From Nitrosopumilaceae archaeon (GTDB lineage: Archaea > Thermoproteota > Nitrososphaeria > Nitrososphaerales > Nitrosopumilaceae), in contig OZ242274.1 in NCBI GenBank assembly GCA_965207375.1, positions 1,184,001 to 1,248,000 on the forward strand: a DNA stretch of 64,000 nt, read 5' to 3'. Below are positions 3,001 to 28,679 of this stretch, in pieces (position 1 is the stretch's first letter; every line of letters starts with the position of its first letter). The notes below the pieces were generated by a model that searched no databases, had not been told where the DNA came from, and saw only the letters and a list, made by a program, of their open reading frames with translations. The position numbers and the translations under genes are program-made.

Positions 3001-4706
3001 GTACAGATGGCGGCACCACTTGGGGTGATTCGACTCCTGCAACATCTGTTGGAACAACTGTTACTGTCACAGGTCTTACAAACGATATACTATACCAGTT
3101 TAGAGTAAGTGCAACAAATGTACAAGCACCAGGAGTACCATCTGATGTCGTTTCTGCAACTCCAACTGCAACCGTACAACCTGTAATTACAGCACCAGGA
3201 GCACCAACTAATCTTTCAGTAGATGCCATAAGCGAGACCACAGTAACACTGTCTTGGACTGCACCTGTAGATAATGGTGGATCTGCAATTATTAATTATA
3301 ACATTGAACAAAGTGAGGATGGCGGTACCACTTGGAACAACTCCAATCCGGTCGCATCTATCACGTCACCTGTCACCGTAACCGATCTCACAAGCGGTCA
3401 AGAATATCAGTTTAGAGTAAGCGCAACAAATGTACAAGAACTAGGACCTACATCCAATGTTGTTACTGTAACTACAACTGCAAGCGCACAACAGGGAACT
3501 GAAACTGTAATTACAGCACCTGGAGCGCCAACAGGTCTTAATGCAACAGTAGGTAACGGTATTGTTACACTGTCATGGATTGCACCTGCAAATAATGGAA
3601 GTTCTGCCATCATCAGTTATACCATACAACAAAGCACAAACGGTACTGTTTGGGTTAATTCAACTCCTGCTACAGCAACTGAACTGACACAGATTGTAAC
3701 AGGGCTTACAAACGGTGTACAGTATCAGTTTAGAGTTAATGCTACAAATACAGAATTGACAGGTGATGCCTCTGCGGCTGTATCTGCCACACCAGACGCT
3801 TCAATACCAACTGTACCTGACGCACCAATATATCCATCATTTTGGATAACAGATGATGCAACTGAAGTAAGATTGTTTTGGAATGCACCAGCAGATAATG
3901 GTGGGTCTGATATTACTGTATACAAGACACAATACAAAATAGCAACTGATTCTGATTGGACAAACGGTCCAGACTCTACAACAATTCCTGTAACTATATC
4001 AAACCTTACACCGAATCAACCATACGAGTTTAGAGTATTTGCAGTAAATGACATAGGAACCAGTGAACCGTCCCTTGTTACATTTGCAACGCTAGTACCA
4101 ATACAGGCTACAGTACCTGGCGCTCCAACTGCTCTTGTAGCAACACCTCGCAATGCACAGGTGGCTCTATCTTGGACTGCACCATCTGACGGCGGTTCAT
4201 CAATTACTGGTTATACCGTACAACAAAGCGTTGATTCTGGTACTACTTGGACTGCTTCTACCTTTACTTTATTTGGAACGACTACAACAGTAACCGGTCT
4301 TACAAACGATATACAGTACAGCTTCCGAGTGCTTGCAGTAAACAGTATAGGAATCAGTGAACCCTCCAATGTTGTTACTGCAACACCTACAGCACAGCAA
4401 ACGCCAACTGTACCTGACGCACCAATATATCCATCATTTTGGATAACAGATGATGCAACTGAAGTAAGATTGTTTTGGAATGCACCAGCAGATAATGGTG
4501 GGTCTGATATTACTGTATACAAGACACAATACAAAATAGCAACTGATTCTGATTGGACAAACGGTCCAGACTCTACAACAATTCCTGTAACTATATCAAA
4601 CCTTACACCGAATAAACCATACGAGTTTAGAGTATTTGCAGTAAATGATATAGGAACCAGTGAACCGTCCCTTGTTACATTTGCAACGCTAGTACCAATA
4701 AATTAA
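2..4706 (+). CDS. Large surface protein (FN3 repeats, Ig-like domains with inserted NHL beta-propellers, DUF5011-like domain); 5' end outside the window; split by a frameshift at ~2894
   Basis: Frame 2 is open from base 2 into ORF 272..2908. It contains FN3 motifs (LSWTAP...YQFRVSAxN) and NHL repeats (GQFNxPxGIAIN...IYVAD). ORF 2892..4706 continues the same FN3 repeat in another frame. Confidence 0.85.
3807..4700 (+). repeat. Two near-identical 297-bp FN3 modules (3807-4103, 4404-4700)
   Basis: Both encode PTVPDAPIYPSFWITDDATEVRLFWNAP...VTFATLVPI and differ at only a few bases. Confidence 0.95.
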
Positions 4707-4743
4707 CCGCTTTGATGTTTCACCGTTTACTAATTAAAAAATG

Positions 4744-4844
4744 GTAAGTGTTAACGTCACGTTTGAATTTTTATTCTATTTTTTGACGGCAAAGTAATTT
4801 CGTAGCTAAAATTATCATAATTTTAAAACAACGTTAACAGATAC
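4744..4844. mobile_element. IS66-type MITE (101 bp) with 8-bp target-site duplication
   Basis: Ends GTAAGTGTTAACGT and ACGTTAACAGATAC form an imperfect inverted repeat. AAAAAATG flanks both sides (4736-4743, 4845-4852). Confidence 0.8.
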
Positions 4845-4923
4845 AAAAAATGTAAATAAGCATGCCGCAATCAAATGTAATTAGTTATATAACCACAATT
4901 ATGCATATGAGCTATACAAAAAA

Positions 4924-7900
4924 ATGACATTATTTACAGTAACATCAATTTTAGTTGCACTTTCAGTAGCATCTGTATCTGGTCTTGTTATAGATGATGC
5001 ATTTGCACTGCACGATGACGATGATGGTGATTTATGGGTAGGACATCCGACCTTGAATCATACTTTTATTCCTACACTAGATGTAGCAACAAATGAATTT
5101 ACATTTGCCTTTGATATGCGAACACAGCTTTTTCGTGCCGCTAAGGTTTCATTGGTTAGTCCAGGTTCTAGTGAGGTTATACCTCTTTCAGATTCTAAGG
5201 TGAAAAAGCATGATGGTTATGCTCGATACACGCTGACACTGCCTGATGAAACAGTATACAGGGTTTTATCTTGGGATTCACCCGGCTCTTTTCAGACTGC
5301 AAAAGGCGCAGCTCTCAACTATAACTATGATCCAGACCATCCTCATGTGGGTCAATATAGCAGGAGTGCATCAAGTTCCTATGATGTAATCAGTACAAAT
5401 CCCATCACGCCTGTGGTGAGTATATCTTCAGCTACAGGTGGTGGTACAGGTGGTAATGTGACCTTTACCCTACAGGCAAATCCCGCTCCATCATTTCCAC
5501 TACCCGTAATCATAAATGTCACTACAGTAGGTGAGTATGGTATAACAACCGGCAGACAAGTCACGCCCATACATGAGAATGGATTTGGCACAATAAGCTT
5601 GTTAATTGATGATACAACCCATAATGGTAACGGTTCAGTTACTATACAGATAGACAAAGGTGTGGGTTATACTCGTGGTGCAGATGTGATTAAAACGGTA
5701 GATGTGTTGGATTCGCAACAACCAACTGTACCAAGCACACTATCAAATAGTACACAATCTACACCAATACAGCAAGATGCTATACTGCTAGATACTGTGC
5801 CACCTGTAATTACTGTACCTGGTAAGAATCCAATTATCATCAATCTAGGCACTACCTACAATGATGCAGGCGCCACATGCACTGATAATGTAGATACAAA
5901 TCCTACACTTGTACAAAGTAGTACAGTTGATGCTTCTTCTAGAGGTTCATACACAGTAACATACACATGTACTGATGATGCAAACAATTCTGCACAAGCA
6001 GTTCGAACAGTTAACGTGGTTACAGTACCAGGCGCACCAACTGGTCTTCGTGCAATAGCAGGTGACGCTCAAGTTGAACTATCTTGGACTGCTCCATCTG
6101 ATACCGGAGGCAGAGCAATTACTGATTATAAAATCGAATATAAAACATCAGGTGGTTCATGGACTGTATTCAATGACGGTACATCCACTCGTACCTCTGC
6201 AACTGTTACCGGTCTAACAAACGACCAAGCATATCACTTTAGAGTAAGTGCTACAAACAGTATCGGAACAGGAGCAGTATCAAATACTGCACAGGCAACG
6301 CCAACAGGACAACAAACGCCAATAGTGCAACCGCCTCCAATAGTACATGACAACACACCACCTACAATAGTACATGACAACACACCACCTACAATTGTAA
6401 TTACAGATTCCAATCCTATTACGATATCTTTAGGCACTGTTTACAATGATGCAGGCGCCACATGTACTGATAATGTAGATACAAATCCTACACTTGTACA
6501 ACGTAGTACAGTTGATGCTTCTTCTAGAGGTTCATACACTGTAACATACACCTGTATTGATGATTCTAATAATGAGGCACAAGCAGTTCGAACAGTCAAT
6601 GTGGTTACAGTACCAGGCGCACCAACTGGTCTTCGTGCAATAGCAGGTGACGGTCAAGTTGAACTATCTTGGAGAGCACCAGATAATGGAGGAGATGCAA
6701 TTACAGATTATATCATACAATACAGTGTAAACGCAGGAGCATCATGGAGCACCTTCAATGACGGCACATCAACTAGTACCTCTACTACTGTCACAGGTCT
6801 CACAAACGGAAATACTTACCAATTTAGAACAAGTGCTGTAAACGCACAGGGAACAGGGTCTACATCTAATGTTGCTTCTATAACTCCAACTGTAACCGTA
6901 CAGCCTGTAATTACAGCACTAGGAGCACCAACTAATCTTTCAGCAATAGCAGCTGATGGTGAAATCACATTATCTTGGACTGCACCTGCAAATGACGGAA
7001 ATTCACCAATTACCAGTTATACTATACAACAAAGTACTAATGCTGGCACCACGTGGGTTGCTTCGACTCCTTCAACATCTACTGGAACAACTGTTATCGT
7101 AACCGGTCTGACAAATGATCAAATCTATCACTTTAGAGTAAGTGCGGTAAATGCACAAGGAACAAGCCCAGCATCTAATGTTGATACAGCAACGCCTACT
7201 GCACCTGCACAACAGTCTACTGCACCTGGAATCCCAACAGATCTTTCAGCTACTATAGGTAATACTCAAGTAACACTATCATGGGCAGCACCCACAAACA
7301 TCGGAAGTTCTGCCATCATTAGTTATACCATACAACAAAGCACAGATGGTACTGCTTGGGTTAATTCAACTCCTGCTACAGCAACAGAATTGACACAGAT
7401 TGTAACGGGTCTGACAAACGGTGTACAGTATCAGTTTAGAGTTAATGCTACAAATACAGAATTGACAGGTGATGCCTCTGCGATTATATCTGCCACACCA
7501 GACGCTTCAATACCAACTGTACCTGACGCACCAATATATCCTTCATTTTGGATAACTGATGATGCAACTGAAGTAAGATTGTTTTGGAATGCACCAGCAG
7601 ATAATGGTGGCTCAGACATTACAAGCTACAAGCCACAATACAAAATAGCAACTGATTCTGATTGGACAGCTGGCCCTACGGGATTGTCTATACCTGCAAC
7701 TATATCAGGTCTTACACCGAATCAACCATACGAGTTTAGAGTATTTGCAGTAAATGACATAGGAACCAGTGAACCGTCCCTTGTTACATTTGCAACGCTA
7801 GTACCAATACAGGCTACATCAGTACCTGGTGCTCCAACAAACCTTCAAGCAACGGCAGGTAATGGTATTACTACATTATCATGGAATGCACCATCTGATG

Positions 7901-8412
7901 GCAGATCATCAATTACTGGTTATATCGTACAGCAAAGTATAGACGGCACCACTTGGACTAATTCTGCCTTTACTATATCTGGAACGACTGCAACAGTAAC
8001 GGGTCTGAGCAACGGGGTACAGTACAGCTTCCGAGTGCTTGCAACAAACGCTGTAGGTAACAGTGAACCCTCCAATGTTGATATGACTACACCTGTAGCA
8101 CAGCAAACAAAAACCGCACCTGACGCACCAATATATCCTTCATTTTGGATAACTGATGATGCAACTGAAGTAAGATTGTTTTGGAATGCACCAGCAGATA
8201 ATGGTGGGTCTGATATTACTGTATACAAGACACAATACAAAATAGCAACTGATTCTGATTGGACAAACGGTCCAGACTCTACAACCATTCCTGTAAATAT
8301 CCCAAACCTTACACCGAATAAGCCATACGAGTTTAGAGTATTTGCAGTAAATGATATAGGAACCAGTGAACCGTCCCTTGTTACATTTGCAACGCTAGTA
8401 CCAATAAATTAA
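4924..8412 (+). CDS. Secreted FN3-repeat surface protein with two DUF5011-like Ig domains
   Basis: Hydrophobic signal-like N-terminus (..VIDDAFA), about seven FN3 modules, two YNDAGATCTDNVD...YTVTYTC modules. The C-terminus is nearly identical to that of the upstream gene. Confidence 0.9.
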   Translation: MTLFTVTSILVALSVASVSGLVIDDAFALHDDDDGDLWVGHPTLNHTFIPTLDVATNEFTFAFDMRTQLFRAAKVSLVSPGSSEVIPLSDSKVKKHDGYARYTLTLPDETVYRVLSWDSPGSFQTAKGAALNYNYDPDHPHVGQYSRSASSSYDVISTNPITPVVSISSATGGGTGGNVTFTLQANPAPSFPLPVIINVTTVGEYGITTGRQVTPIHENGFGTISLLIDDTTHNGNGSVTIQIDKGVGYTRGADVIKTVDVLDSQQPTVPSTLSNSTQSTPIQQDAILLDTVPPVITVPGKNPIIINLGTTYNDAGATCTDNVDTNPTLVQSSTVDASSRGSYTVTYTCTDDANNSAQAVRTVNVVTVPGAPTGLRAIAGDAQVELSWTAPSDTGGRAITDYKIEYKTSGGSWTVFNDGTSTRTSATVTGLTNDQAYHFRVSATNSIGTGAVSNTAQATPTGQQTPIVQPPPIVHDNTPPTIVHDNTPPTIVITDSNPITISLGTVYNDAGATCTDNVDTNPTLVQRSTVDASSRGSYTVTYTCIDDSNNEAQAVRTVNVVTVPGAPTGLRAIAGDGQVELSWRAPDNGGDAITDYIIQYSVNAGASWSTFNDGTSTSTSTTVTGLTNGNTYQFRTSAVNAQGTGSTSNVASITPTVTVQPVITALGAPTNLSAIAADGEITLSWTAPANDGNSPITSYTIQQSTNAGTTWVASTPSTSTGTTVIVTGLTNDQIYHFRVSAVNAQGTSPASNVDTATPTAPAQQSTAPGIPTDLSATIGNTQVTLSWAAPTNIGSSAIISYTIQQSTDGTAWVNSTPATATELTQIVTGLTNGVQYQFRVNATNTELTGDASAIISATPDASIPTVPDAPIYPSFWITDDATEVRLFWNAPADNGGSDITSYKPQYKIATDSDWTAGPTGLSIPATISGLTPNQPYEFRVFAVNDIGTSEPSLVTFATLVPIQATSVPGAPTNLQATAGNGITTLSWNAPSDGRSSITGYIVQQSIDGTTWTNSAFTISGTTATVTGLSNGVQYSFRVLATNAVGNSEPSNVDMTTPVAQQTKTAPDAPIYPSFWITDDATEVRLFWNAPADNGGSDITVYKTQYKIATDSDWTNGPDSTTIPVNIPNLTPNKPYEFRVFAVNDIGTSEPSLVTFATLVPIN
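6338..6395 (+). repeat. In-frame 27-bp tandem duplication (IVHDNTPPT x2)
   Basis: caatagtacatgacaacacaccaccta at 6338 and 6365. Confidence 0.9.
7513..8406 (+). repeat. Third and fourth copies of the 297-bp FN3 module (7513-7809, ~8110-8406)
   Basis: Same module as 3807-4103; copy 3 has a divergent internal patch at ~7612-7710. Confidence 0.93.
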
Positions 8413-16553: not shown

Positions 16554-19500
16554 ATGTACAACAATCAAAAAAACGAAATATACAAAAAATTAACTAGTCT
16601 AACACTAATGACAATAATGGTGGCTGGCGGAATGACCTTTGCAGTACCAGGAATGGTTCCAGAGGCCTATGCTGCCAATGCAAACCTGTTTGTCTCCGCA
16701 GAAAACTCAAAATTTGACAATTACATGTCCGGACCTCAAGTAATTGAGGTGGCAATAATTGATTCATCTATATCTGACACAGATGAGGGCAAAGGAGAAC
16801 CTGACGTTACTGTAAATGGCAACAACCTGAGAATGGTTCAAGCCACTGACGGTAATTGGTACGGTTACTTTGCTGATAAAACAATGGCAGAAAGAGCTGA
16901 TTCACAAGATAATGGATTGGACTTTGGTACATCTGGTTCTGTTGTAAATATTCTTCCTTCAGATGCTGAATTTGAAGCTGATGGACTCTTTTTCAACGAA
17001 AACAATGTTAACGTTGTAAGAGAACCAAAGAACGTAAACACAAACCTACGTATCGATGACGGTCAAATTGGCATTACTGCCGATACATGGCCATTTATCC
17101 AACTATACACTCTAAATCCGACAGGCAATGTTGTGGTACAGTACAACAAGGGAGGCGGTGCACAAAGCACTACATTAACCTTTGATACTGTTGACGACTT
17201 TGCAGGTATAGAACTGGACAGGGCTTCTTATCCACAAGGAGCTGAAGTTCATGCAACTATTACTGATGCATGGTTAAACATTGACCCAACTGACGAAGAT
17301 TCATGGACGTTTAACACTGTAAGTGGTGACGCCTTCTATCATGTCTATAATGACAATGGTGGAATTGGTGAGAATACTTCCCTCGAAAAAGATGGCACTG
17401 GCCTTCAATCTGTAAGCGTTGGAGATTTGATGTGTTCAGATTGTGCCTTGATACTAAAGCCTAATGTTCAAGGTGATGATAAACACGTCATTACAATCCA
17501 AGGTAATGCAGATTCTAGAATTGCTAACGATGGCGATACTGCTCTCACAGCAGACGCTTGGGTTAAACAAAATGTAGTAATTACCGTCTTAGATCAGAAA
17601 ACTCAGCCGGTTACTATCACAGAACAAGGACCTAACAGCGGAATCTTTGGTACTTATGACGAGTCTGACACATCTATACTCAAAATTATAGATGATGCCG
17701 ATAGAGGCACGTCAGCTACTTTAGATTACAATGATAGTCCAGTATCTGTCCTAGTAACTCACGCATTTGCTGAAATCGACATACAACCAGTATCTGACGT
17801 TTGGAACAGTGGTGAACTAATACCAGTCGTTCTTGTCGATTCTGATATTAATAAAAATACCAGAGCAGACGAGGACATTTCACTAAGCGATCCTAGCTAC
17901 AAAATAATTCCAAGTCTTAGGACTGGAAGCCCAATTACATTGGGTAGTGGTGAATTGACGGTAGATGCACGATCAGCAGATGGAAATTCAGCACCACAAA
18001 CAAATGCAACAGTAGACGCCTTCAGTGACAGAGCAATACTTGAAATTAAAAACGATGAAGAGGTAAAATCTCTGTTGATTGACCTTGGTATTACCGGAAA
18101 AGAATTGAAAAGTTCTTTGGTTGATACTAATGACGGCAACTATGGATATAACCTATTCAACTATGACATTCGTTCACTAGTCGAAGGAGAAAAAGATTCT
18201 CTAGGCACGGTAAAAATATCATTGGTTAACACCACTAATGGTGTAAAAATCAATGTTCCTCTAGCCTGTGATAAATCAGACAGACAAGGTCTAGGGTTAT
18301 TACCTGCTGGAGATTGTACATTACCCGATCCAGAAGACACAACTCCAGCACCAACTTCAATAGTAATTCCATTACTATACAACTCTGGTAGTGCTTACGA
18401 AATGCAACACTTTGGAACAGCATTTGATGAAGCAGTTTCAGACTATAACGCCGCTTCTTCCAAAGCATTTAGCTCACAAAAGCTACCTTTGGGAACAACT
18501 GCTATATCGTCTGTACTAGATACAGGCGCTAAAGGAGCAGTCGGTACTTATACTTCTGAACAGTTGAGGACTCTTAGCCAAACCGGCAAGATCGGTACAG
18601 ACGATGGAGACATTGTCTTGTTAAGTTACTCTTCTACAGCAACATCATTTGCAGAATCAGGCGATGGCATCTTTAGATTGACTACAGATACATCTCGTCA
18701 GGTGGACAGTATAGTAACACAATTGATTCCAACTAATGACTTTGACCAAATCATCTCCATACATCTCAACGATGCATGGAGCCAAGATTATGTTGCAGCA
18801 TTAAATGCAACATACGGTGACGCTCACAGCGAGATTAAATACGATCCTAAAGCAAGTAACATAACTACCGAGTTTAACACTGTTCTAAGAACAGGTTTGT
18901 CAGGTCTTGATGCACAAACTGCAATCGTGATTCTTGAATATGATCATGATAGACTTGATGCACTGGTAACAGAACTTGCTAGAACGAACGTTAATGCTTA
19001 TGCCGGAATCTCCACCACAAAGTTCATCATTCCTGATGTTCCAAGTGGTGCCTTTGGCGATAATCTAAACGCTGATGCTCTTGCATTACTTAAAGCCACA
19101 GACATGAAGACGATAAAGTTTGCACTAAGTGTTAACACTGACGGTCAGAACGCATTGAGAGATGCTCTAAACAAGACCACATTGACACAGGTCAACTTTG
19201 ACAGTGATGATAACATCTTTGACAGACATGCATATGCCGCATACGACGCAGGTCAGATTCTGACACGAGCTATAGATGCTCTTGGATCAGAATATACATC
19301 TGAACAATTAAACAACCGTATTCCACTCGCAGCAGAGGATTATAGTTCTGAGGCTTTGATATACAATACAAAGCTAAACGATAAAGGTGACCTGGCATGT
19401 ATGGTATATGACATATTTGAGATTGATGACGGATCCACAGGATTTGCACTTCAAACTCCAACACAAGAAACTACTGACCCTGTTAACTGTAAAAGAACTA

Positions 19501-22500
19501 TAACAGAACCTAACGCACCAACTGTTACTGAAATACACCAGAGGCCAGCATCAGCTGAGCTAACATGGACTCCAGCAACAGACGGTACTCCAGCAACAGA
19601 ATTTCAAGTACAATACAAACTTGCAACTGCTAGTTCATGGACAGACCATTCTACTGTATCTGCATCTACTACTCTAACTGTAACTATAAGTGGTCTCTCA
19701 AACGACCAAGAATACTACTTTAGAGTAATTGCAATAAACAGTATAGGAGGAAGTGAAGCATCTGTTGTAGTTAAAACTACTCCAAGAGCACAAGTCTTTG
19801 CACCAAACGCACCAACAGGTCTAACTGCAACATCACTCAATGCCACAGCAGTCACATTATCATGGGCTGAACCGGCAGATGATGGTGGCGCAGAAGTCAC
19901 TGATTACAAGGTAGAATACAAACTTGCAACTGCTACAAATTGGAACACATTTGCTGACGGTACATCTGACACTGTCTCTACAACTGTAACTGGTCTGACA
20001 GAAGGACAAGTATACCAGTTTAGAGTAAGTGCAACAAACGTACAAGCAACAGGAGCAGTATCTAATATTGATATTGCAACACCAACAGCACCAGCTCCAG
20101 TAGCAACAGTACCTAATGCACCAACAGGTCTAACTGCAACAGCAGGTGATACTACAGTCTTATTATCATGGACTGCACCAAGCACTGGTGATGCACCAAC
20201 AGGCTATACGGTACAACAGAGTACTGATGGAACTAGCTTCGCTGATTCTACTACTGTTACAGTAACTGGAACAACAGCTACAGTAACAGGACTCACAAAC
20301 GATCAACAATACACCTTTAGGGTATTTGCAACAAACGCTCAAGGACCAAGTGCAGCAGCATCTAATGTTGCTACAGCAACTCCAGCAGCAGCACAAACCA
20401 ACGGAGGCTCAACGCCAACCAACACCGCTCCAGTAATTGAAACAATTACTGCTCAAACATTCACAGTTGGCACAGCAGTATCTGTCCCCATAAATGCAAC
20501 TGATGCAGAAGGTGACACGATTATGTACAATGTAATGCTCGATCCGACACCAACAACACGACCTACCATATCAGGTAACGAACTCACTTGGCCTGCACCA
20601 GAAGCAGGTACATACGACGTAACGATCACAGCACGTGATGGGACTACCGACGGCAACACAGTATCGTTCACACTAACGATAAACCGCGCTCCAGTCTTAG
20701 CACCAATAGGTGCTCAATCAGGAACCGTAGGTGAACTATTGACAATCCCACTCTCTGCAACTGATGCAGATGGTGACAGGGTTACTTACACCATATCTCC
20801 TCCTCTAACAGGAGCAACACCAGGTAATTACGTAAAACTTGGCACCACAACAACTGCAACACTCACTTGGACACCAACTGTCGCAGACACATACGATGTA
20901 ATGATCATAGCACGTGACGGAAACATAGGCGGTATTGATCGTGAACCTATTACTATCACAATAACTGACCCAGCACCAACTCCAGTGGTATATCCACCAA
21001 GAGTAAACTTTGATGCAGGCGATACTGTTGAAATTCCAATGATACTAGACAACGATGTGCTTTACGAAAGTAACTTCTTTGGTTGGTTTGGTCAATCTGT
21101 AGGCGACTATGCTCAAAATGCAATCCAAAGCAACGTTACATATAGTGACGTGCCTTATGACATTAGTTCAAATGCAACAGAAGACATTGAGCGTATTGTT
21201 GACGCAGGTAACAAAGCTGCTGTAGGTACTTATACCTCACAACAGTTGAAAGACCTAAACGACACAGGAAAAGTCGGTACAGATATTGTCCTGTTAAGCT
21301 ATGCCTCAACTGCTTCAACATTGACTGGAACCGATGGTATATTCAGACTCACTACGAACAATCAACATCAGGCAGATAATGTCTTAAAGCCAGAGTTGTC
21401 TGGATTTGCAAACATCATATCCATACATCGTAACGATACATGGAGTATTGATTATGTCACTATACTAGAAAACCAGTATGGTGCTAATCATGAGATAATT
21501 GCATACGATTCAACTCTATCAGGTGACATAATGACCAAGTTACGTGATTCTTCTACAGGTCTACACAGCATTGCAGCAGACACTGCAATTGTGATTCTAG
21601 GATTTGGTGAAGTTAAAGATGTACTCATGGAGTTATCTGTTCAAGGACAAAACGGTTACAACTATACAGGCATTGAAACAACAAAGTTCTTCATTCCTGA
21701 CCTTGCAGCAAGCGTTGCAGATGATCTTGATGATCAACATGCGATTGCATTGCTTAAAGCCACAGATATGAAGACGATAAAGTTTGCACTAAAGAACGAC
21801 AATACAAGAGCCGATCTAAACGATAAGGTACGTGACGGCACTGACTCAGACGAAAGACACGTCTATGCCGCATACGATGCAGGTAAAATCTTGGCAAGAG
21901 CCATAGATGAACTTGGAAAGGACGGTACAGTAGAACAACTAAAGACAAAGATTCCAGAAGTAGCTCGTGCATACAATTCTGAGGCTCTCATACACAGTAC
22001 GATACTAGGTCCAAATGGTGACCTTGAATGTACTACCTATGACGTGCTTGAGATAAACGACACTGCAAGCAGTGTTGGTACAATTGTATTCGAGAACAAT
22101 TCTACTCAGAGAAACACTTGTGCTTCTACATCATCTGTACCAATGTTGAATAGCCCACAGTTAGTATCATGTATTGACTGTGCAATCAACTCATTTGGTG
22201 AAATCTTTGGACAAACAGTTCAGGTACAATCTACAACACAGCAAGCAACAACAATCACAAACATCTTGGAAATTCCTGACGACAGCAAATTAGCAATACT
22301 CATTGAATATCAGAACCCAGTCACAACAGATAGTGAAGATGATCCAATTGTATTGGACTTTTTCGCATTTGGATTTGGCGATGACGGAAGAACAGCTAAT
22401 CAAATTGTCAGACTTGAATTGGAAGAAACTGGTGATAACACTGACACCTTTGTAGGTGGCTTGGAATACACTATGTTAAACCAACTCAACATTCTGAAAG

Positions 22501-25211
22501 CATCTACTTACACTGGACTAAGTCCAATATCTGACGAGCCAACATTTATCGTAATGGAGGACTTGACAGACGAAGACTCTCCTCGAGTCAATTATCTTGA
22601 CCTAGGAGCAGACGGTGTAGCAACACAGATTGCTGACCAACAAGAGGCACCATCACACTCTGGTGTAGTAGCACTTGATTCAGACAACTACAAGGTTGCT
22701 GATACAGTGATTATCACACTGACTGATGCTGACCTAAACGTGGACAGTGACTTGATTGATATTTTCACTACAGTCGCACCTGGAAACTATACCATGTCTG
22801 ATACAGTAGGTGATAACGTAATGTTTAATGGTAAATCTGTCGAAATTGACGATGCTCCATTAGGACGATTACTTGATGTTACCTTTAACGACGAGAAATG
22901 GACTGTAAACGAATGTACTCCAGACGACAATATTGATGACGGCTTGCATGAGACAGGTTTCACATTAATTGAAACCGAGACTGCAAGTGGTGTCTTTATG
23001 GGATCATTCCAGATTCCAACAATGTATTGTCCAGAAGGTGAAACAGAACGAGAATCTGTCACTGGTACTGACATTGAGGTAAACTATGTCGACTATAGAG
23101 ACGCATCTGGTGAAATCATCGAAGTAGGTGATTCAGCAGGTGTTCGAGCCAGCACTGGTTCAGTATCTCTAGACAGAACGGTTTATCCAGTTCCATTCGC
23201 AGGTAGCACATTCGCATATCATGATGCAGCAGGCAGTGGATATTTGGACCAAGGTAATGTAACAATCCACGTTAGGATTTCAGATCCTGACTATGATGTT
23301 TCAGCCTCTGGTGAAGATAAAATCGCACAGAATAACTCAACCAATGCAGGTAAAGGAGTCGCAAAAGACGTAGGACCTATCAAGGTGACAGTCTTAAGAG
23401 GACAAGCATCTGAGATCGTTGCAACAGCAGGTGGAGAAAACGTAATTGAGGCTACAAGTACTACTGCAAAGGAGTACGGACCAATATTAGAAACTGCACC
23501 TGATTCTGGAATATTTGAAGCAGACATTGCAATCGGCTACAATAGTGGACCCGCAGATGAATGCCCAACCATATATTCTAACGGATGTGTTCTACAAGGT
23601 GATATTCTCACTGTAGAATACACAGATCCAACAGATGCATCTGGTGAGCCAAACTCAGTTACCGATTCAGCTACATTTGACCTAAGAAACGCAGTGCTAC
23701 AATCTGATAAATCAGTCTACATCATTGGAAGTGACATGATCTTGACTCTAATAGAGCCAGACTTTGATCTTGATAATGATAGTGCTGAAACCTATTCACT
23801 TGATCTAATCGAGTGGGATTCAGATGCAGACACTACAAGTATGGGTGAACGTGGTGGAGACAATGCAGCAGCATTTGACCCAGAACCAAACGCCTTTAGA
23901 GAAACAGGCGACAGCACTGGAATCTTCCAGGTTGTAGTCGAAATTCCTGAAGCACTTGGCGGCGACAAACTCGAAAGAGGCGAAGAAATCGAACTAGAGT
24001 ATACCGATTTGGGACCATCTGGTTCTGACTATGTTGGTGAAGAAGAAGAAGACATTAATCTTACTATCTTTACATCAAACTTTGGCAGTACCATTGAATT
24101 GGACCAAAAGGTTTACACTTGGACTGATAAGGTCTACATAACTATAGTAGCACCTGATCACAACTTCGATTCTGACTTGATAGATGAAATTGGTGACAGT
24201 GATGAAGACCCAATAAGGATTGCCACTAGAGATAAAGATCTTGACAATTACAAATTGGTCGAGACCGGTACCGATACTGGAATCTTTACTGGTGAGATAA
24301 TCTTAACTGGATTTGCACACGATGCTAATGGTGACGGAAAAACTGATGATACAAACCCACGTACCGGTGACGGCACAGGTAAAACTAAAGACTTGGGTCC
24401 AACAAACGGATTCCTAGAAGCTGAGGACGATGACGGCCTTTCAGTATCCTTTGAATTTTCAGAGGATGAAACTGTAATAGCTTCATCATTAATCAGATGG
24501 AATATCGGTGAGGCTCAATGGCTTGAAGCAAGCTATGCAGCAAGCGGTACAGGTTTGGTAAGAATAGTAGATCCAGACATGAATTTGAACCCAGAATCAG
24601 TTGACAACTTTGAGATTGATATTTGGTCAGATACACATGCTGGAGGTATTGACTTGACTGTAACTGAGACAAACCAGGCTACGGGAATCTTTGAGGGAAC
24701 AGTATTCTTTACTGTGACTGACGAGTCTTCCGGACACAGACTGCGAGTCTCAGAAGGTGACACTGTCACCGCAGAATATGAAGACCGTACACTACCTGAC
24801 CCACACGATACAAGAGACACGATTGATATTACTGCCACAACCCAGATAGGCTCAATCATACCTCCACTCGAGAGAGCACCAGCTACCAATTTGAGAATAG
24901 TTGATGCATTTAGCAATACGCTAGACACTCTAGACGTGGATCAACAGGTACAGATTACAGCCGACTTGGCAAACGGACAGGATAACGATCAGCCATTTGC
25001 ATACATCGTACAGATTCAGGATAGCAGCAGTGTAACTGTAGCCCTTGCATGGGTTTCAGGAACATTGACACCTTCACAGTCGTTTAGTCCAGCATTATCA
25101 TGGACCCCATCAGAGGCAGGCAAATATACTGCAACTGCATTTGTTTGGGAATCTGTAGATAATCCAACTGCACTATCACCACCAAACGAGTTAACAATAA
25201 CTGTCAACTAG
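16554..25211 (+). CDS. slaA: Nitrosopumilus-type S-layer protein with a large internal insertion (2 PBP-I-like, 3 FN3, 2 Ig-like domains)
   Basis: N-terminus KKLTSLTLMTIMVAGGMTFA..ANANLFVSAENS..GPQVIEV, repeated ETGxxTGIF motifs and C-terminus FVWESVDNPTALSP are typical of thaumarchaeal S-layer proteins. Confidence 0.9.
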   Translation: MYNNQKNEIYKKLTSLTLMTIMVAGGMTFAVPGMVPEAYAANANLFVSAENSKFDNYMSGPQVIEVAIIDSSISDTDEGKGEPDVTVNGNNLRMVQATDGNWYGYFADKTMAERADSQDNGLDFGTSGSVVNILPSDAEFEADGLFFNENNVNVVREPKNVNTNLRIDDGQIGITADTWPFIQLYTLNPTGNVVVQYNKGGGAQSTTLTFDTVDDFAGIELDRASYPQGAEVHATITDAWLNIDPTDEDSWTFNTVSGDAFYHVYNDNGGIGENTSLEKDGTGLQSVSVGDLMCSDCALILKPNVQGDDKHVITIQGNADSRIANDGDTALTADAWVKQNVVITVLDQKTQPVTITEQGPNSGIFGTYDESDTSILKIIDDADRGTSATLDYNDSPVSVLVTHAFAEIDIQPVSDVWNSGELIPVVLVDSDINKNTRADEDISLSDPSYKIIPSLRTGSPITLGSGELTVDARSADGNSAPQTNATVDAFSDRAILEIKNDEEVKSLLIDLGITGKELKSSLVDTNDGNYGYNLFNYDIRSLVEGEKDSLGTVKISLVNTTNGVKINVPLACDKSDRQGLGLLPAGDCTLPDPEDTTPAPTSIVIPLLYNSGSAYEMQHFGTAFDEAVSDYNAASSKAFSSQKLPLGTTAISSVLDTGAKGAVGTYTSEQLRTLSQTGKIGTDDGDIVLLSYSSTATSFAESGDGIFRLTTDTSRQVDSIVTQLIPTNDFDQIISIHLNDAWSQDYVAALNATYGDAHSEIKYDPKASNITTEFNTVLRTGLSGLDAQTAIVILEYDHDRLDALVTELARTNVNAYAGISTTKFIIPDVPSGAFGDNLNADALALLKATDMKTIKFALSVNTDGQNALRDALNKTTLTQVNFDSDDNIFDRHAYAAYDAGQILTRAIDALGSEYTSEQLNNRIPLAAEDYSSEALIYNTKLNDKGDLACMVYDIFEIDDGSTGFALQTPTQETTDPVNCKRTITEPNAPTVTEIHQRPASAELTWTPATDGTPATEFQVQYKLATASSWTDHSTVSASTTLTVTISGLSNDQEYYFRVIAINSIGGSEASVVVKTTPRAQVFAPNAPTGLTATSLNATAVTLSWAEPADDGGAEVTDYKVEYKLATATNWNTFADGTSDTVSTTVTGLTEGQVYQFRVSATNVQATGAVSNIDIATPTAPAPVATVPNAPTGLTATAGDTTVLLSWTAPSTGDAPTGYTVQQSTDGTSFADSTTVTVTGTTATVTGLTNDQQYTFRVFATNAQGPSAAASNVATATPAAAQTNGGSTPTNTAPVIETITAQTFTVGTAVSVPINATDAEGDTIMYNVMLDPTPTTRPTISGNELTWPAPEAGTYDVTITARDGTTDGNTVSFTLTINRAPVLAPIGAQSGTVGELLTIPLSATDADGDRVTYTISPPLTGATPGNYVKLGTTTTATLTWTPTVADTYDVMIIARDGNIGGIDREPITITITDPAPTPVVYPPRVNFDAGDTVEIPMILDNDVLYESNFFGWFGQSVGDYAQNAIQSNVTYSDVPYDISSNATEDIERIVDAGNKAAVGTYTSQQLKDLNDTGKVGTDIVLLSYASTASTLTGTDGIFRLTTNNQHQADNVLKPELSGFANIISIHRNDTWSIDYVTILENQYGANHEIIAYDSTLSGDIMTKLRDSSTGLHSIAADTAIVILGFGEVKDVLMELSVQGQNGYNYTGIETTKFFIPDLAASVADDLDDQHAIALLKATDMKTIKFALKNDNTRADLNDKVRDGTDSDERHVYAAYDAGKILARAIDELGKDGTVEQLKTKIPEVARAYNSEALIHSTILGPNGDLECTTYDVLEINDTASSVGTIVFENNSTQRNTCASTSSVPMLNSPQLVSCIDCAINSFGEIFGQTVQVQSTTQQATTITNILEIPDDSKLAILIEYQNPVTTDSEDDPIVLDFFAFGFGDDGRTANQIVRLELEETGDNTDTFVGGLEYTMLNQLNILKASTYTGLSPISDEPTFIVMEDLTDEDSPRVNYLDLGADGVATQIADQQEAPSHSGVVALDSDNYKVADTVIITLTDADLNVDSDLIDIFTTVAPGNYTMSDTVGDNVMFNGKSVEIDDAPLGRLLDVTFNDEKWTVNECTPDDNIDDGLHETGFTLIETETASGVFMGSFQIPTMYCPEGETERESVTGTDIEVNYVDYRDASGEIIEVGDSAGVRASTGSVSLDRTVYPVPFAGSTFAYHDAAGSGYLDQGNVTIHVRISDPDYDVSASGEDKIAQNNSTNAGKGVAKDVGPIKVTVLRGQASEIVATAGGENVIEATSTTAKEYGPILETAPDSGIFEADIAIGYNSGPADECPTIYSNGCVLQGDILTVEYTDPTDASGEPNSVTDSATFDLRNAVLQSDKSVYIIGSDMILTLIEPDFDLDNDSAETYSLDLIEWDSDADTTSMGERGGDNAAAFDPEPNAFRETGDSTGIFQVVVEIPEALGGDKLERGEEIELEYTDLGPSGSDYVGEEEEDINLTIFTSNFGSTIELDQKVYTWTDKVYITIVAPDHNFDSDLIDEIGDSDEDPIRIATRDKDLDNYKLVETGTDTGIFTGEIILTGFAHDANGDGKTDDTNPRTGDGTGKTKDLGPTNGFLEAEDDDGLSVSFEFSEDETVIASSLIRWNIGEAQWLEASYAASGTGLVRIVDPDMNLNPESVDNFEIDIWSDTHAGGIDLTVTETNQATGIFEGTVFFTVTDESSGHRLRVSEGDTVTAEYEDRTLPDPHDTRDTIDITATTQIGSIIPPLERAPATNLRIVDAFSNTLDTLDVDQQVQITADLANGQDNDQPFAYIVQIQDSSSVTVALAWVSGTLTPSQSFSPALSWTPSEAGKYTATAFVWESVDNPTALSPPNELTITVN

Positions 25212-25258: not shown

Positions 25259-25882
25259 TTGCAACTATCTACATACACAAAACAACATCAAGAATATTAT
25301 CAGAAAAATAAAGAGAGAATAAAGGAAAACCACAAAAAACGCCACAACGAACTCAGAGAACAAGAAAACCAGTATACTGTCACATATTATCAGAAAAATA
25401 AAGAGCAAATAAAAAAAAAGAATAGAAACAACTATGCAAATGACAAGGAGAAATTCAAAAAAAGCAGTAGAGAGTACAGGGAGAAAAATAAAGATAAAGT
25501 CACAAAGAGAGAAAAGCGATACTATGAAAGGAACAAGGTCGAATTAAGTGCCAGAAAAAAAGCACAGTACGAGGCAAACAAGGAAGAATTTACAAAGCGC
25601 GCAAAGGAATACTATAAGAAAAACAAGGCTAAATTTGCCAAACGTGCAAAGGCATACTATCAAAAGAACAAGGAAACATTTGCAAAGCGAGAACAGAGAT
25701 ATTATCAGAGTAACAAGGAAAAGATTACAAAACGTGCAAAGGAATACTATCAGAATAACAAGGGCAAAGTTGCCAAACGTGCAAAGAAATACTATGAAAA
25801 AAACAAAGAAAAGATTGCCAAACGAGCAAAAGCCAACCGTCAAAAGATCAAAGAAGAAATCATCAAACAAACGTCGAGGTGA
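25259..25882 (+). CDS. Lys/Arg/Tyr-rich 15-aa repeat protein (YYxxNKE repeats)
   Basis: 207-aa ORF with periodic xxKRAKEYYQKNKEK units. Confidence 0.75.
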   Translation: MQLSTYTKQHQEYYQKNKERIKENHKKRHNELREQENQYTVTYYQKNKEQIKKKNRNNYANDKEKFKKSSREYREKNKDKVTKREKRYYERNKVELSARKKAQYEANKEEFTKRAKEYYKKNKAKFAKRAKAYYQKNKETFAKREQRYYQSNKEKITKRAKEYYQNNKGKVAKRAKKYYEKNKEKIAKRAKANRQKIKEEIIKQTSR

Positions 25883-26328
25883 GATGCATGTCTACCTACA
25901 CACAAACCCACCAAATTTACTATCAGAAAAATAAAGAAAAAATCAAGGAAAACCGCAAAAAGCATTACAGAGCAAATAGAGAGCAGGAAAATCAAATCAG
26001 CGCCGATTATTACCAGAAACATAAAGAGCAAATCAAGGCAAACCACAAAGAACTGTATGAAGGGGACAAGGAACGATTCAAGGAATACAATAAACAGTAC
26101 AATATAAAGAACAAAAAGAAGGTCTTAGAGCAAAAAAAGGAATACTATCAAAAAAATAAAGAAAAGTTACTAGCCAAATACAAAAAACGTTATCGATTAA
26201 ACAGAAAAAAGATACTAGCAGATAAAAAGAAAAAATACGAATCAAACAAGAAAAAATCTTCCAAGAAAACCAAGAAACCGGTACCTGCAAAACAAAAAAT
26301 TAAAAAAATAACGTCTACAAAAAAATAA
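25879..26328 (+). CDS. Paralogous Lys-rich YYQKNKE repeat protein
   Basis: The N-terminal ~75 aa align with the preceding ORF (STYT..HQ.YYQKNKE.IKEN.KK....REQENQ). Confidence 0.75.
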   Translation: MRCMSTYTQTHQIYYQKNKEKIKENRKKHYRANREQENQISADYYQKHKEQIKANHKELYEGDKERFKEYNKQYNIKNKKKVLEQKKEYYQKNKEKLLAKYKKRYRLNRKKILADKKKKYESNKKKSSKKTKKPVPAKQKIKKITSTKK

Positions 26329-26936
26329 ATTCAAAATTTATTAGATGTAATAATTGATACCTGAAAATGAATCAAAAGAATCGCAAGTGTTAATATAATT
26401 TTTATCTATTCTAGTTTGTACCTGACATCTTCCATAAAGCAGCTGATAAAGGCAATCAGGACTACAGTCCTGATACACGTAGATGATATATCACTGCATC
26501 TAAACTGCAAAAACGTGTAGATGTGAGTGTTTTACATTTCGGGTACTAACAAGGCGCAGTATATGCTACGTCCTAGCATTAGGTGATGTAATTTGGGCAA
26601 TAGGTTCTGACTGGAATGAAACAATTGACTGTAACAGACACAAACCGTATAAAACTGCACATATCACAGATGTGCGGCGCAAAAAACACAATCTTAGTAT
26701 GCTGAAGATTATTAATGTATACCATACAATCTTAAAAGATTCATGATAAACTTGGTTCAACAAACCTCATTTCATCAGCACATACTCAGGTCGCCTCTGA
26801 TTCTATGCCTAGTTTTTGAACATACATGAAAAATTTATGCCTGAAAAATTTACGACCTGAGTTTGTACTTTCATCAATCAATTACAAATATTTACAACAT
26901 CGAAGAGAATTTAGCCTTGAATCTAATTTGAATGTC

Positions 26937-28679
26937 ATGAGACAAAACATATCTTTTAGTTTGGATAAAAAACTCATACTCTTAGTTCTTACCGTATCTT
27001 TAATTGCAATTGTGGCTACTGCTGCACTGTCTCTGAATCTAATTGATGGGATACTAAAAGAAAGAATTAACGATCAACTCATAGAAGAATCTACAACTAG
27101 GGGAAATACAATAAAATTATTACTTGACAACAGAATCAGGGAGGTTTTTATTTTGTCATCTGTTCCGCTGATAAAAAACACCATATCTCAGCTAAACCAG
27201 TACTCTGATGATACCATACTAGATTCAAAAATTGCAGAAAAAAAGACTTTGATTTTTACAGAAATTAAAAACTTTCAGACCCGAGAAGGACATCAAATAG
27301 AGCTAGTCGATGTTGCGTTTTTTGGAAAAAATCTAAAAAAATACTTTACACTAGAAAATGGAACTGAATTTCCTTCAAAAGAGAGAATAGCTCAGATAGC
27401 TAGCCGTCATCTAATGGAATTTATGCAAAATTCACAAGGAACAAGGCAGTTGATTGTGGCAATACCCATCAAAGACGAACAAAATCAAGACGTCATAGGC
27501 ATCATTGCAGCAGTAATGAGAACAAACAATCTAGATGCAATATTGCAAAACAGAGAAGGATTGCAAAATACGGGCGAGGCTTATATGGTAAATCAAGACA
27601 GACTAATGATTTCAAAATCAATTTTTGTACAAAATGCAGAATTTAATCAAAAGATACAAACACTTCCTGTGTCTGCCTGCTTTGATGATCACAAATCAAT
27701 TACGGGCATAGTTTACAAAAATTACAAAAACCAAGACATCTTTGGCACATCGCACTGTCAGAGTGGATACGGATACGTTGTTCTAACAGAGATAGACGAA
27801 GGCGAAATCCTAATACCCTTATTTGATTTACAGGCAAAAATCATTACCGTAAGCATAATTATCATGCTAGGAATAAGCAGCACCGCATACTTGTTATCAA
27901 AAAGACTTTCAAAACCAATCAGAAAACTTATAGATGCAGTACATGAAATTTCTAAAGGAAACTTTGATGTAAAAACAAACATCAAAACCAGTGACGAGAT
28001 TGGTGATCTATCTGATTCCTTTGATTTTATGGCAAAAAAATTACGCGAATCTGAAATTGCATTGACCAAACAAAAAGAAATTATCAACCAGCAAGAAAAC
28101 ATCTTATTGCAATTCTCAGATCATACAGAAAATGCATGTGTGTGTTTTATTGACATTGAAAACTCTACAAAAATTTGCGCAAAATTATCTGAATCTGAGG
28201 CAAGCAGTCTGTATAGTGAATTTTTGAATTCTATGGCCATTATAATAAAACGGTATAATGGAATAGTTGTCAAAAATATAGGGGATGCATTACTATTTTA
28301 TTTTAAAATAGATAACATTCAAGATGAAAATGAATTCAGAAATGTTTTAGAATGTTGTACGAAATTACGAGAACATCATGATGAACTGTGCATATTGCTC
28401 AAAAAGAAAAACTTGCCTTGCGTCAATTACAGAACCAGTTCCACATTTGGTACGGTAAGTATTGCAAATGTGTCTACATCAGAGGTAAATGATGTGTTTG
28501 GCTCCACTGTGAATCTGTGCTCAAAAATCAACTCATTTGCGCCCTCCAACGGCCTAGTTATAGGGGAGAGATTCTATGAAAAGGCCAAAAAAATTACCGG
28601 ATTTGAGTTTGTCAATATCAGTGATTTTCAGATTTCAGAAAATCAAGATCTCAAAATATTTTCTGTAACTCGTACATGA
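26937..28679 (+). CDS. Membrane sensor: Cache-like + HAMP + class III adenylate/guanylate cyclase
   Basis: Two TM segments, HAMP (KPIRKL..ISKGNF..DEIGDLSDSF), cyclase motifs FIDIENST, VKNIGDA, DVFGSTVN. Confidence 0.88.
   Translation: MRQNISFSLDKKLILLVLTVSLIAIVATAALSLNLIDGILKERINDQLIEESTTRGNTIKLLLDNRIREVFILSSVPLIKNTISQLNQYSDDTILDSKIAEKKTLIFTEIKNFQTREGHQIELVDVAFFGKNLKKYFTLENGTEFPSKERIAQIASRHLMEFMQNSQGTRQLIVAIPIKDEQNQDVIGIIAAVMRTNNLDAILQNREGLQNTGEAYMVNQDRLMISKSIFVQNAEFNQKIQTLPVSACFDDHKSITGIVYKNYKNQDIFGTSHCQSGYGYVVLTEIDEGEILIPLFDLQAKIITVSIIIMLGISSTAYLLSKRLSKPIRKLIDAVHEISKGNFDVKTNIKTSDEIGDLSDSFDFMAKKLRESEIALTKQKEIINQQENILLQFSDHTENACVCFIDIENSTKICAKLSESEASSLYSEFLNSMAIIIKRYNGIVVKNIGDALLFYFKIDNIQDENEFRNVLECCTKLREHHDELCILLKKKNLPCVNYRTSSTFGTVSIANVSTSEVNDVFGSTVNLCSKINSFAPSNGLVIGERFYEKAKKITGFEFVNISDFQISENQDLKIFSVTRT

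Follow-up and report, generated by a model that had tools for sequence, protein, structure and literature searches.

The window analyzed here is a stretch of 64,000 nucleotides from contig OZ242274.1 of a Nitrosopumilaceae archaeon (assembly GCA_965207375.1), and in this work we focused on one of its genes, an uninterrupted open reading frame (ORF; 16554..25211, + strand, stop codon included) that codes for a protein of 2885 amino acid residues (aa). To judge from its homologies, the gene encodes a lattice-forming surface-layer (S-layer) protein of the family of NmSLP, the S-layer protein of Nitrosopumilus maritimus, and this protein carries a cargo of two domains related to periplasmic binding proteins (PBP1 and PBP2), with fibronectin type III (FN3) and immunoglobulin-like (Ig-like) domains between them. 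The S-layer family and the binding fold are both known; what is new is their joining in such an architecture and in such a copy number. Our literature search returned no account of an S-layer protein of ammonia-oxidizing archaea (AOA) with embedded solute-binding domains, the architectures in Extended Data Fig. 5 of PMC11153153 being left aside.

An S-layer gene with a large insert

We compared the 2885-aa protein with the PDB sequences using phmmer. The top match was 8c8k_A (E = 0, 1758.6 bits), the 1734-aa 'Cell surface protein' NmSLP of N. maritimus, the structure of which has been solved. On the N-terminal side, aa 6-126, 117-467, and 482-565 aligned to residues 2-126, 158-518, and 567-649 of 8c8k; the match of aa 6-467 to 8c8k 2-518 was made up of 183.9 + 307.1 bits, and the match of aa 482-565 to 8c8k 567-649 was a weak stretch of 15.8 bits. 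On the C-terminal side, aa 1929-2884 aligned to 8c8k 715-1733 with 1259.6 bits. The homology includes the N-terminus and domains D1-D3 of NmSLP on one side, and the C-terminal Ig-like domains up to the last domain on the other. The N-terminal S-layer part (aa 1-571, 16554..18266, + strand; aa 6-565 align to 8c8k 2-649) comprises a signal/anchor-like N-terminus, NmSLP domains 1-2, the first half of domain 3, and a shortened start of the region that we assign to domain 4. The C-terminal S-layer part (aa 1929-2885, 22338..25208, + strand) corresponds to NmSLP 715-1733, from the second half of domain 3 to domain 10. Both lattice parts are acidic, with 16.2% (N-terminal) and 19.4% (C-terminal) D+E versus 6.0% and 4.6% K+R, and their net charge per 100 residues is -10 to -15, compared with -4 to -8 in the insert.

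Between the two S-layer parts lie ~1360 aa, in which PBP1, three FN3 domains, two He_PIG Ig-like domains, and PBP2 follow one another on the + strand. The original prediction, made from the sequence and its ORFs, had placed recognizable S-layer halves around a large insert of this content; the halves were borne out by the phmmer matches to 8c8k on both sides, and the content by Pfam, the PBP1-PBP2 alignment, profile comparison, and fold prediction. The insert is entered through a loop bounded by Cys572 and Cys588 (18267..18317), which was delimited in the alignment of paralogues and relatives. PBP1 (aa ~600-980, 18351..19493), a type I domain of the LivJ/ANF-receptor-like kind, ends in the pair Cys949/Cys979. 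The three FN3 domains (aa ~983-1280, 19500..20393) were matched by Pfam in the whole protein (PF00041, 123.6 bits versus a cut-off of 25, in 3 stretches), and the same region also matched the FN3 domains of titin and of receptor phosphatases in the PDB search. The two He_PIG-type Ig-like domains (PF05345, 25.8 bits versus a cut-off of 24, in 2 stretches from aa 1292; aa ~1292-1478, 20427..20987) are seen in the DNA as a direct repeat with a spacing of 279 nt. PBP2 (aa ~1495-1860, 21036..22133), also a type I domain, contains 8 N-x-S/T sequons and ends in Cys1826/Cys1856, and it is followed at the exit junction by a CxxC motif (Cys1873 and Cys1876, 22170..22181). The Cys pairs reported to end both PBPs and to border the insert were thereby located.

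A near-identical block of 40 bp, described earlier as shared by both PBPs, is real and somewhat longer: 54 nt in PBP1 (19075..19128, + strand) and in PBP2 (21739..21792, + strand) are 93% identical and encode 15 identical residues. The type I hallmark motifs proposed for the two domains held in part. AVGTYTS, LLSY.STA, GIFRLT, and YAAYDAG.IL.RAI occur once in each PBP, whereas N..GD is found at aa 942, in PBP1, and at aa 304, away from both PBPs; PBP2 has NGD instead, one residue short. The statement that the S-layer protein of free-living Nitrosopumilus has roughly 1700 aa and none of these domains agrees with the 1734 aa of the N. maritimus-type reference, which is devoid of them.

Family, fold and ligand positions of the binding domains

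PBP1 and PBP2 share 42% identity (E 3e-83). In the Pfam search of the whole 2885-aa protein at E 0.01, no PBP family was reported; when the PBPs were searched alone, ANF_receptor (PF01094) narrowly passed its gathering score of 25.4 in both (26.0 and 27.3 bits), and Peripla_BP_6 (PF13458) in PBP1 stayed, with 26.2 bits, under the cut-off of 31.7. We then used an alignment of 21 domains, of which 8 came from the four insert-bearing paralogues of the genome, 1 from a genome of the same genus, and 12 from family relatives, in which they belong to non-S-layer proteins. The profile built on it matched Leu/Ile/Val-binding proteins with E values of 1e-20 (4n0q), 9e-17 (2lbp), and 1.5e-15 (1z15), followed by the ligand-binding domains of GABA-B, plant glutamate receptors, and metabotropic glutamate receptors (mGluR), and it reached 42 distinct sequences at E 0.01 or better. 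The structure of PBP1 predicted by AlphaFold2 from the same alignment showed a type I two-lobe alpha/beta fold with strand-helix alternation (pLDDT 88.5, pTM 0.89). In Foldseek, the top-ranked matches of this model were the natriuretic-peptide receptor, mGluR, and LivJ-type proteins (probability 1.00, TM 0.58-0.66). Taken as a prediction, the fold assignment is solid.

The columns aligned to Ser79 and Tyr150 of LivK were invariant in all 21 domains, as Ser and Trp, and the column of Thr102 was Thr in both PBPs of the window protein; these three LivK residues we take to be ligand contacts in LivJ/LivK. A pair of cysteines at the C-terminal end was found in 7 of the 8 embedded PBPs of the four paralogues and in none of the free PBPs of the alignment. 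When 1.84 billion representative proteins were searched for the domain, there were 132 matches at E 0.001, 22 at 1e-10, and 7 at 1e-30, and six of these last seven belonged to the same S-layer family or were fragments of its members. By this measure of similarity, the embedded PBP domain is very divergent from other proteins. A prediction of the PBP1-PBP2 complex, run with both alignments and no controls, gave a score of 0.00 and was uninformative either way.

Paralogues in the genome

The genome that holds the window (G000; 4.30 Mb in 4 contigs, 99.95% complete) contains five NmSLP homologues, all at separate loci of contig C1. Four of them bear the insert with two PBPs: copy A, which is the window gene (2885 aa), copy B (2956 aa), copy C (2939 aa), and the divergent copy E (2763 aa). 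The first PBPs of the other paralogues are 68-75% identical to PBP1 of A, and the number and kind of the other domains vary, as the insert of B starts with FN3 domains, C has an additional Ig-like domain ahead of PBP1, and in E, in which Pfam finds no FN3, Big_9 and cadherin-like domains are present instead. The fifth, copy D (G000:C1:1401242-1406248, L030), has 1663 aa. It matches A up to ~aa 718, with 68-70% identity over the 119-128 residues at the start of PBP1; what follows corresponds to A from ~aa 1859 on, and the protein ends ~90 aa early, without the last Ig-like domain. Since D retains a stub of PBP1, it is not an uninserted slaA, and its sequence marks it as a collapsed descendant of an insert-bearing gene. 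A TATA-like upstream element is common to A, B, and D, and variants of it precede C and E.

The original prediction had considered that a separate, uninserted slaA might be the expressed S-layer gene. No plain uninserted slaA was found in the genome with either the N-terminal or the C-terminal S-layer query, as all matches of both belonged to the same five genes, and that objection fails.

Relatives and other cargo in the S-layer family

In a word-indexed search of 5.8 billion proteins, 27 of the 7994 scored had E values of 1e-10 or better. Twelve of the 27 (P0003-P0014, 2227-3066 aa, one of them truncated) stem from other assemblies, where their contigs measure 34-44 kb, and have two PBP-like domains each. 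Their identity to the closest paralogue is 62-72% in the top alignment, which indicates that they are different genes, probably of related organisms. In a genome of the same genus, G014, we found an NmSLP homologue with a single PBP.

We also surveyed 151 genomes of the family (the tallies include the unpublished genomes G077, G092, and G093). The C-terminal S-layer query had matches in 148 of them. Among the ~150 matches listed (377 more exist), the open frames were mostly of 1.6-1.98 kaa, frames longer than 2700 aa were present only in the window genome, and other frames longer than 2000 aa were present in G111, G119, and G052. The protein of G111, a member of another genus (L035, G111:C13, 2264-8689), has 2141 aa from the first start codon and carries an Ice_binding-like domain (PF11999, 223 bits) at residues ~518-571 of the reference protein described in the next section, as well as ~235 additional aa near residue 220. 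The protein of G119 (L034, G119:C2, 4969-11880; 2303 aa) has a 595-aa insert of no recognized family at residues ~523-605. The 2393-aa protein of G052 was considered as a further case of the same architecture and rejected, as it has only the middle NmSLP domains in common.

In a large protein collection, 645 proteins (1676-4785 aa) among 7992 scored had E values of 1e-50 or better, and the best 120 of the 645 were used. They included 106 newly returned proteins, 103 of which had 1600-1999 aa, and the exceptions in length were a tandem fusion of 3724 aa, a protein of 2212 aa with a beta-propeller match, and one of 2192 aa with an RTX-type match. The tandem fusion (P0030, from a public assembly) consists of two near-complete NmSLP-type proteins head to tail in one ORF. 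P0113, an NmSLP homologue of 1929 aa that is likewise from another genus, has an Ice_binding-like insert at reference residues 529-566. Variable inserts at the same site, for which the original prediction had proposed a survey in host-associated AOA, were thus found in other Nitrosopumilaceae, in the form of the Ice_binding-like domain and the 595-aa insert. With different cargo in other lineages, the variable region is a site at which cargo recurs. Within this survey, the window lineage was the only one with the double-PBP cargo. Homologues of PBP1 were present in 42 of the 151 family genomes at 22-31% identity, often as tandem PBP arrays and in secreted-looking proteins.

Insertion site and topology

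The insertion site was mapped on a reference protein, or ruler, of 1734 aa from genome G131 that aligns to 8c8k along its entire length (3781 bits). The window protein is 48% identical to ruler residues 1-648. In A, B, C, D, and the protein of G014, similarity to the ruler ends at ~632-648 and resumes at ~693-718; the N-side BLAST alignment of copy E reaches only to residue 514, and for its junction we relied on the multiple alignment. Strong conservation breaks off at residue 518 and sets in again at 713-718, and 10 of the 26 N-x-S/T sequons of the ruler are located between residues 526 and 670. Passages of PMC11153153 describe domain 4 of NmSLP as nested in domain 3 via short connectors and raised toward the extracellular milieu, place the glycans mainly on domains 1, 2, and 4, and state that residues 35-455 and 466-1498 were refined as separate blocks. 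On the basis of the conservation gap, the sequons, and this description of domain 4, we assigned ruler residues ~520-715 to domain 4. The alignment thereby located the insertion loop at one fixed site in a variable, sequon-rich region, and the insertion would lie in the distal third of the assigned domain 4, with the cargo probably facing outward. The outward display of the architecture is a much stronger claim than the class of its ligand.

The Cys pair at the entry junction is present in the five paralogues and absent from three uninserted relatives and from the protein of G014. PBP1 begins ~10 residues past the entry Cys loop, and PBP2 ends ~15 residues ahead of the exit CxxC. As the insertion is in one small domain, with exit and return near one point, the two PBPs should be located side by side, with the array between them as a distal loop. 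The original prediction had described the FN3/Ig array as a stalk that lifts the PBPs, and this needs correction, because PBP1 stands at the entry and PBP2 at the exit. PBP1 and PBP2 would probably be adjacent on the outer face of the lattice, with the five beta-sandwich domains arching out from them.

Selection, phylogeny and recombination

We estimated dN/dS (the ratio of nonsynonymous to synonymous substitution rates) by the pairwise Nei-Gojobori method for A versus B, C, D, and E, by segment. The ratio was 0.25-0.47 for the lattice parts (0.25-0.37 in the long copies and 0.28-0.47 in copy D), 0.29-0.40 for PBP2, 0.45-0.75 for PBP1, and 0.59-0.94 for the FN3/Ig array, and it was 0.91 for the PBP1 stub of D. 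The PBPs are under purifying selection, and so are, still, the lattice parts of copy D. The synonymous rate (dS) was up to ~eightfold apart between segments of one gene pair; for A versus E it was 0.26 for PBP1 but 2.15 for the N-terminal part. This unevenness of dS, and likewise the 54-nt block of 93% identity between domains that are 42% identical, suggests that the S-layer copies have exchanged sequence by recombination or gene conversion.

In a maximum-likelihood tree of 46 domains (34 S-layer-embedded, including that of G014, and 12 free), all 34 embedded PBPs formed one clade apart from the 12 free domains, with 100/100 support. The first PBPs formed a tight group, and the second PBPs fell into several deep lineages, three of which were sister to the group of first PBPs.

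Proposed function and alternative explanations

We lean, by a modest degree, towards the explanation that the cargo makes the S-layer a surface-wide layer for the capture or retention of an amino-acid-like ligand. According to this proposal, the outward region assigned to domain 4 would have been turned into a display site, with the chain running through the Cys-bracketed loop, PBP1, three FN3 domains, two Ig-like domains, PBP2, and the CxxC segment into the rest of domain 3 and domains 5-10. If all subunits carried the cargo, there would be 12 binding domains per hexamer. The PBPs would bind a small amino-acid-like ligand and retain it at the cell surface, and the retained ligand could then be more available locally for uptake by the LIV-I system (livKHMGF) or for other surface processes. 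The proposal is modelled, by analogy, on the ammonium-trapping role shown for the plain NmSLP lattice. Incorporation of the long copies into the lattice, the class of the ligand, and the hand-over to a transporter are all presumed in it.

At C1:1998-2003 kb, the genome has a complete operon of the livK-livM/H-livG/F type. It codes for a pair of ABC ATPases, a pair of BPD_transp_2 permeases, and a LivK-like protein of 442 aa, whose identity to PBP1 is 27% (E 3e-14). The operon (in the region G000:C1:1994500-2004500, L039) adjoins an IS66-family transposase. According to the parts of PMC13552627 that treat it, the LIV-I system is found in ~80% of sponge-associated AOA genomes and is absent from 93% of free-living ones. 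A host association of the organism had been assumed in the original prediction; the liv operon, the giant proteins rich in FN3 and NHL domains encoded elsewhere in the window, and the transposases of the window are hints consistent with it and no more than that.

Several points weigh against capture by the cargo. The PBPs are supported by Pfam only marginally (26.0 and 27.3 bits for a gathering score of 25.4, Peripla_BP_6 falling short of its threshold), three of the four paralogues have Ala in the LivK Thr102 column of their first PBP, and the ligand positions of the C-lobe could not be aligned to those of the leucine-binding protein. Around each of the five S-layer loci, a range of 8 kb was free of liv genes. 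A binding domain anchored outside the lattice would be unable to dock on a membrane permease, so that any hand-over would have to proceed by release and diffusion, and the lattice pores of NmSLP are, in the description given in PMC11153153, only ~5 Å wide. The boundaries of domain 4 were drawn from conservation and sequons rather than coordinates, as the domain descriptions in PMC11153153 come without residue ranges. Finally, copy D has the same TATA-like element upstream as A and B and could be the main lattice protein.

The main rival to capture is a variable surface coat that serves in adhesion, in recognition of a host or partner, or in shielding from viruses, in which the PBPs would be protein-binding or structural and the paralogues alternative surface types. 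The four full-length paralogues are diverged and differ in the number and order of their beta-sandwich domains, and the FN3/Ig array evolves fastest (dN/dS 0.59-0.94), which favours such a coat; the signs of recombination or gene conversion (dS from 0.19 to >2 across segments, and the 54-nt block) and the several deep lineages of second PBPs point the same way. Peptide-hormone receptors that share the fold are among the closest structural matches, giant proteins rich in FN3, NHL, and Ig-like domains are also encoded in the window at 2-8412, and PMC6790972, in the part concerned with S-layer proteins, reports expanded and expressed S-layer families in sponge AOA and suggests adhesion or recognition roles for them. 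However, the PBPs are under purifying selection (0.29-0.75) and have kept invariant positions, including those aligned to Ser79 and Tyr150 of LivK, and nothing points to phase-variable expression. We regard the variable coat as a serious but rather unlikely explanation.

It is still less probable that the long copies play a minor or silent part, like Nmar_1201 beside NmSLP, and that the 1663-aa copy D builds the lattice, the long ones being a sparse decoration or staying out of it altogether. In N. maritimus, according to PMC11153153, the lattice is dominated by one of a pair of similar paralogues, and copy D has an intact frame, a TATA element identical to that of A and B, and lattice parts with dN/dS of 0.28-0.47. 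On the other hand, D is itself derived from an insert-bearing form, as its PBP1 stub indicates, and it is without the last domain, which the NmSLP authors suggest, in the text of PMC11153153 that deals with it, as a possible anchor of the layer. The lattice parts of the long copies are equally strongly constrained (0.25-0.37), and the architecture has been kept in the 12 further proteins of other assemblies.

Finally, there is hardly any chance that the junctions are an artefact of assembly joining an S-layer gene to unrelated surface-protein genes, a chimera that the original prediction had also considered: although the region is repetitive and the short-read contigs of public runs are fragmented there, four independent, diverged copies share the same junction site in a 4-contig genome, 12 further proteins have the same two-PBP layout on other contigs, G014 has a single-PBP version, and exact pieces among the public-run contigs of a second study cover 18142-18378 and 19402-20679 (PBP1 end through FN3), bridging the entry junction and the boundary of PBP1 to FN3. 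For the exit junction (PBP2 to the C-terminal part), there was no bridging piece among the short assembled contigs listed, which are fragmented by the paralogues.

To return to capture and retention of a ligand, a more specific and clearly more tentative version of this explanation is a two-tier S-layer, in which paired LivK-like domains, 12 per hexamer, would stand above the ammonium-sieving lattice and capture branched-chain or other amino acids over the whole cell, feeding the LIV-I system of a mixotrophic ammonia oxidizer, with the variable FN3/Ig domains as the outermost face. If it is true, this would be the first case in nature of an S-layer lattice subunit with integral solute-binding proteins, and the assigned domain-4 region would be a general, evolvable display site that carries Ice_binding-like and unknown cargo elsewhere.

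Among the S-layers of AOA, only the plain NmSLP lattice has been solved to date, and it is interpreted as a charged sieve for ammonium. With a cargo of 150 kDa in its outward region, in four paralogues and a dozen relatives, the lattice appears as a natural and evolvable display platform. This suggests that some AOA bind organic ligands with their whole surface, which would fit the recent evidence for amino-acid mixotrophy in symbiotic AOA, and it identifies a candidate permissive insertion site for engineered S-layer display.

Genomic neighbourhood

Directly downstream of the window S-layer gene lie two small ORFs (25259-25882 and 25879-26328, + strand). Two or three such ORFs are found downstream of three of the five S-layer genes (A, C, and E) and are 77-85% identical between the loci. 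Their products are extremely basic, consist of ~13-aa repeats around a YYQKNKEK motif, and have no Pfam match; basic ORFs beside very acidic envelope genes make an odd pairing. We considered them as SlaB-like partners of the S-layer protein and rejected this, as they are basic repeat proteins and have no counterpart beside the reference S-layer gene. At 26826-28679 (+ strand), 1.6 kb downstream, the window encodes a membrane sensor with dCache_1, HAMP, and adenylate/guanylate-cyclase domains.

Upstream of the gene, at a distance of 8 kb, three consecutive ORFs of 968 aa (with an open 5' end), 604 aa, and 1162 aa occupy 2-8412 (+ strand). They contain FN3, NHL, Bact_surface_Ig-like, and Big_12 domains and represent a second set of repeat-rich surface proteins. 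Transposase genes of the IS66 and IS110 families are located at 58966-60042 and 62075-63166 (+ strand), respectively. Together with its size (4.3 Mb, compared with 1-2 Mb for most family genomes searched), this suggests that the genome is rich in mobile elements and expanded for the family.

Comparison with known systems

The closest known protein is NmSLP itself (Nmar_1547, PDB 8c8k; von Kügelgen et al. 2024, PMC11153153). The N-terminal 565 aa of the window protein are 48% and the C-terminal 957 aa 62% identical to the NmSLP type, and the two share the acidic composition of the lattice and the same N-terminus. They differ in that a cargo of ~1360 aa replaces roughly residues 650-714 of NmSLP in the window protein, new Cys pairs flank the insert, and the sequon-rich first part of the assigned domain 4 is shortened.

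The PBPs resemble the binding proteins of the LivJ/LivK type (type I, HAAT) and the ANF-receptor/mGluR fold in their two-lobe fold, family motifs, and profile match (E 1e-20). Unlike the free or membrane-tethered transporter subunits, they are embedded twice in an S-layer protein, they are very divergent, and they have the added Cys pair at the C-terminal end. Their nearest non-S-layer relatives, at 22-31% identity, are the multi-PBP secreted proteins of Nitrosopumilaceae, in which type I PBPs stand in tandem in ORFs of ~800-2400 aa; these are without S-layer parts, and their domains are placed outside the clade of embedded PBPs. The proteins of G111 and P0113 (Ice_binding-like) and of G119 (595 aa) have cargo in the same variable region, at reference residues ~518-605, but their inserts are much smaller (~260-600 aa), consist of a single domain type, and contain no PBP.

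Decorated S-layers are known from other organisms, such as the tetrabrachion of Staphylothermus marinus with its bound protease and the SLH- and CWB2-anchored families of surface proteins of Firmicutes. These systems resemble the protein described here in using the surface lattice, or the module that anchors it, to carry functional domains. There, however, the function is attached non-covalently or resides on separate proteins that share the anchor, whereas the cargo of the window protein is built into the lattice subunit itself.

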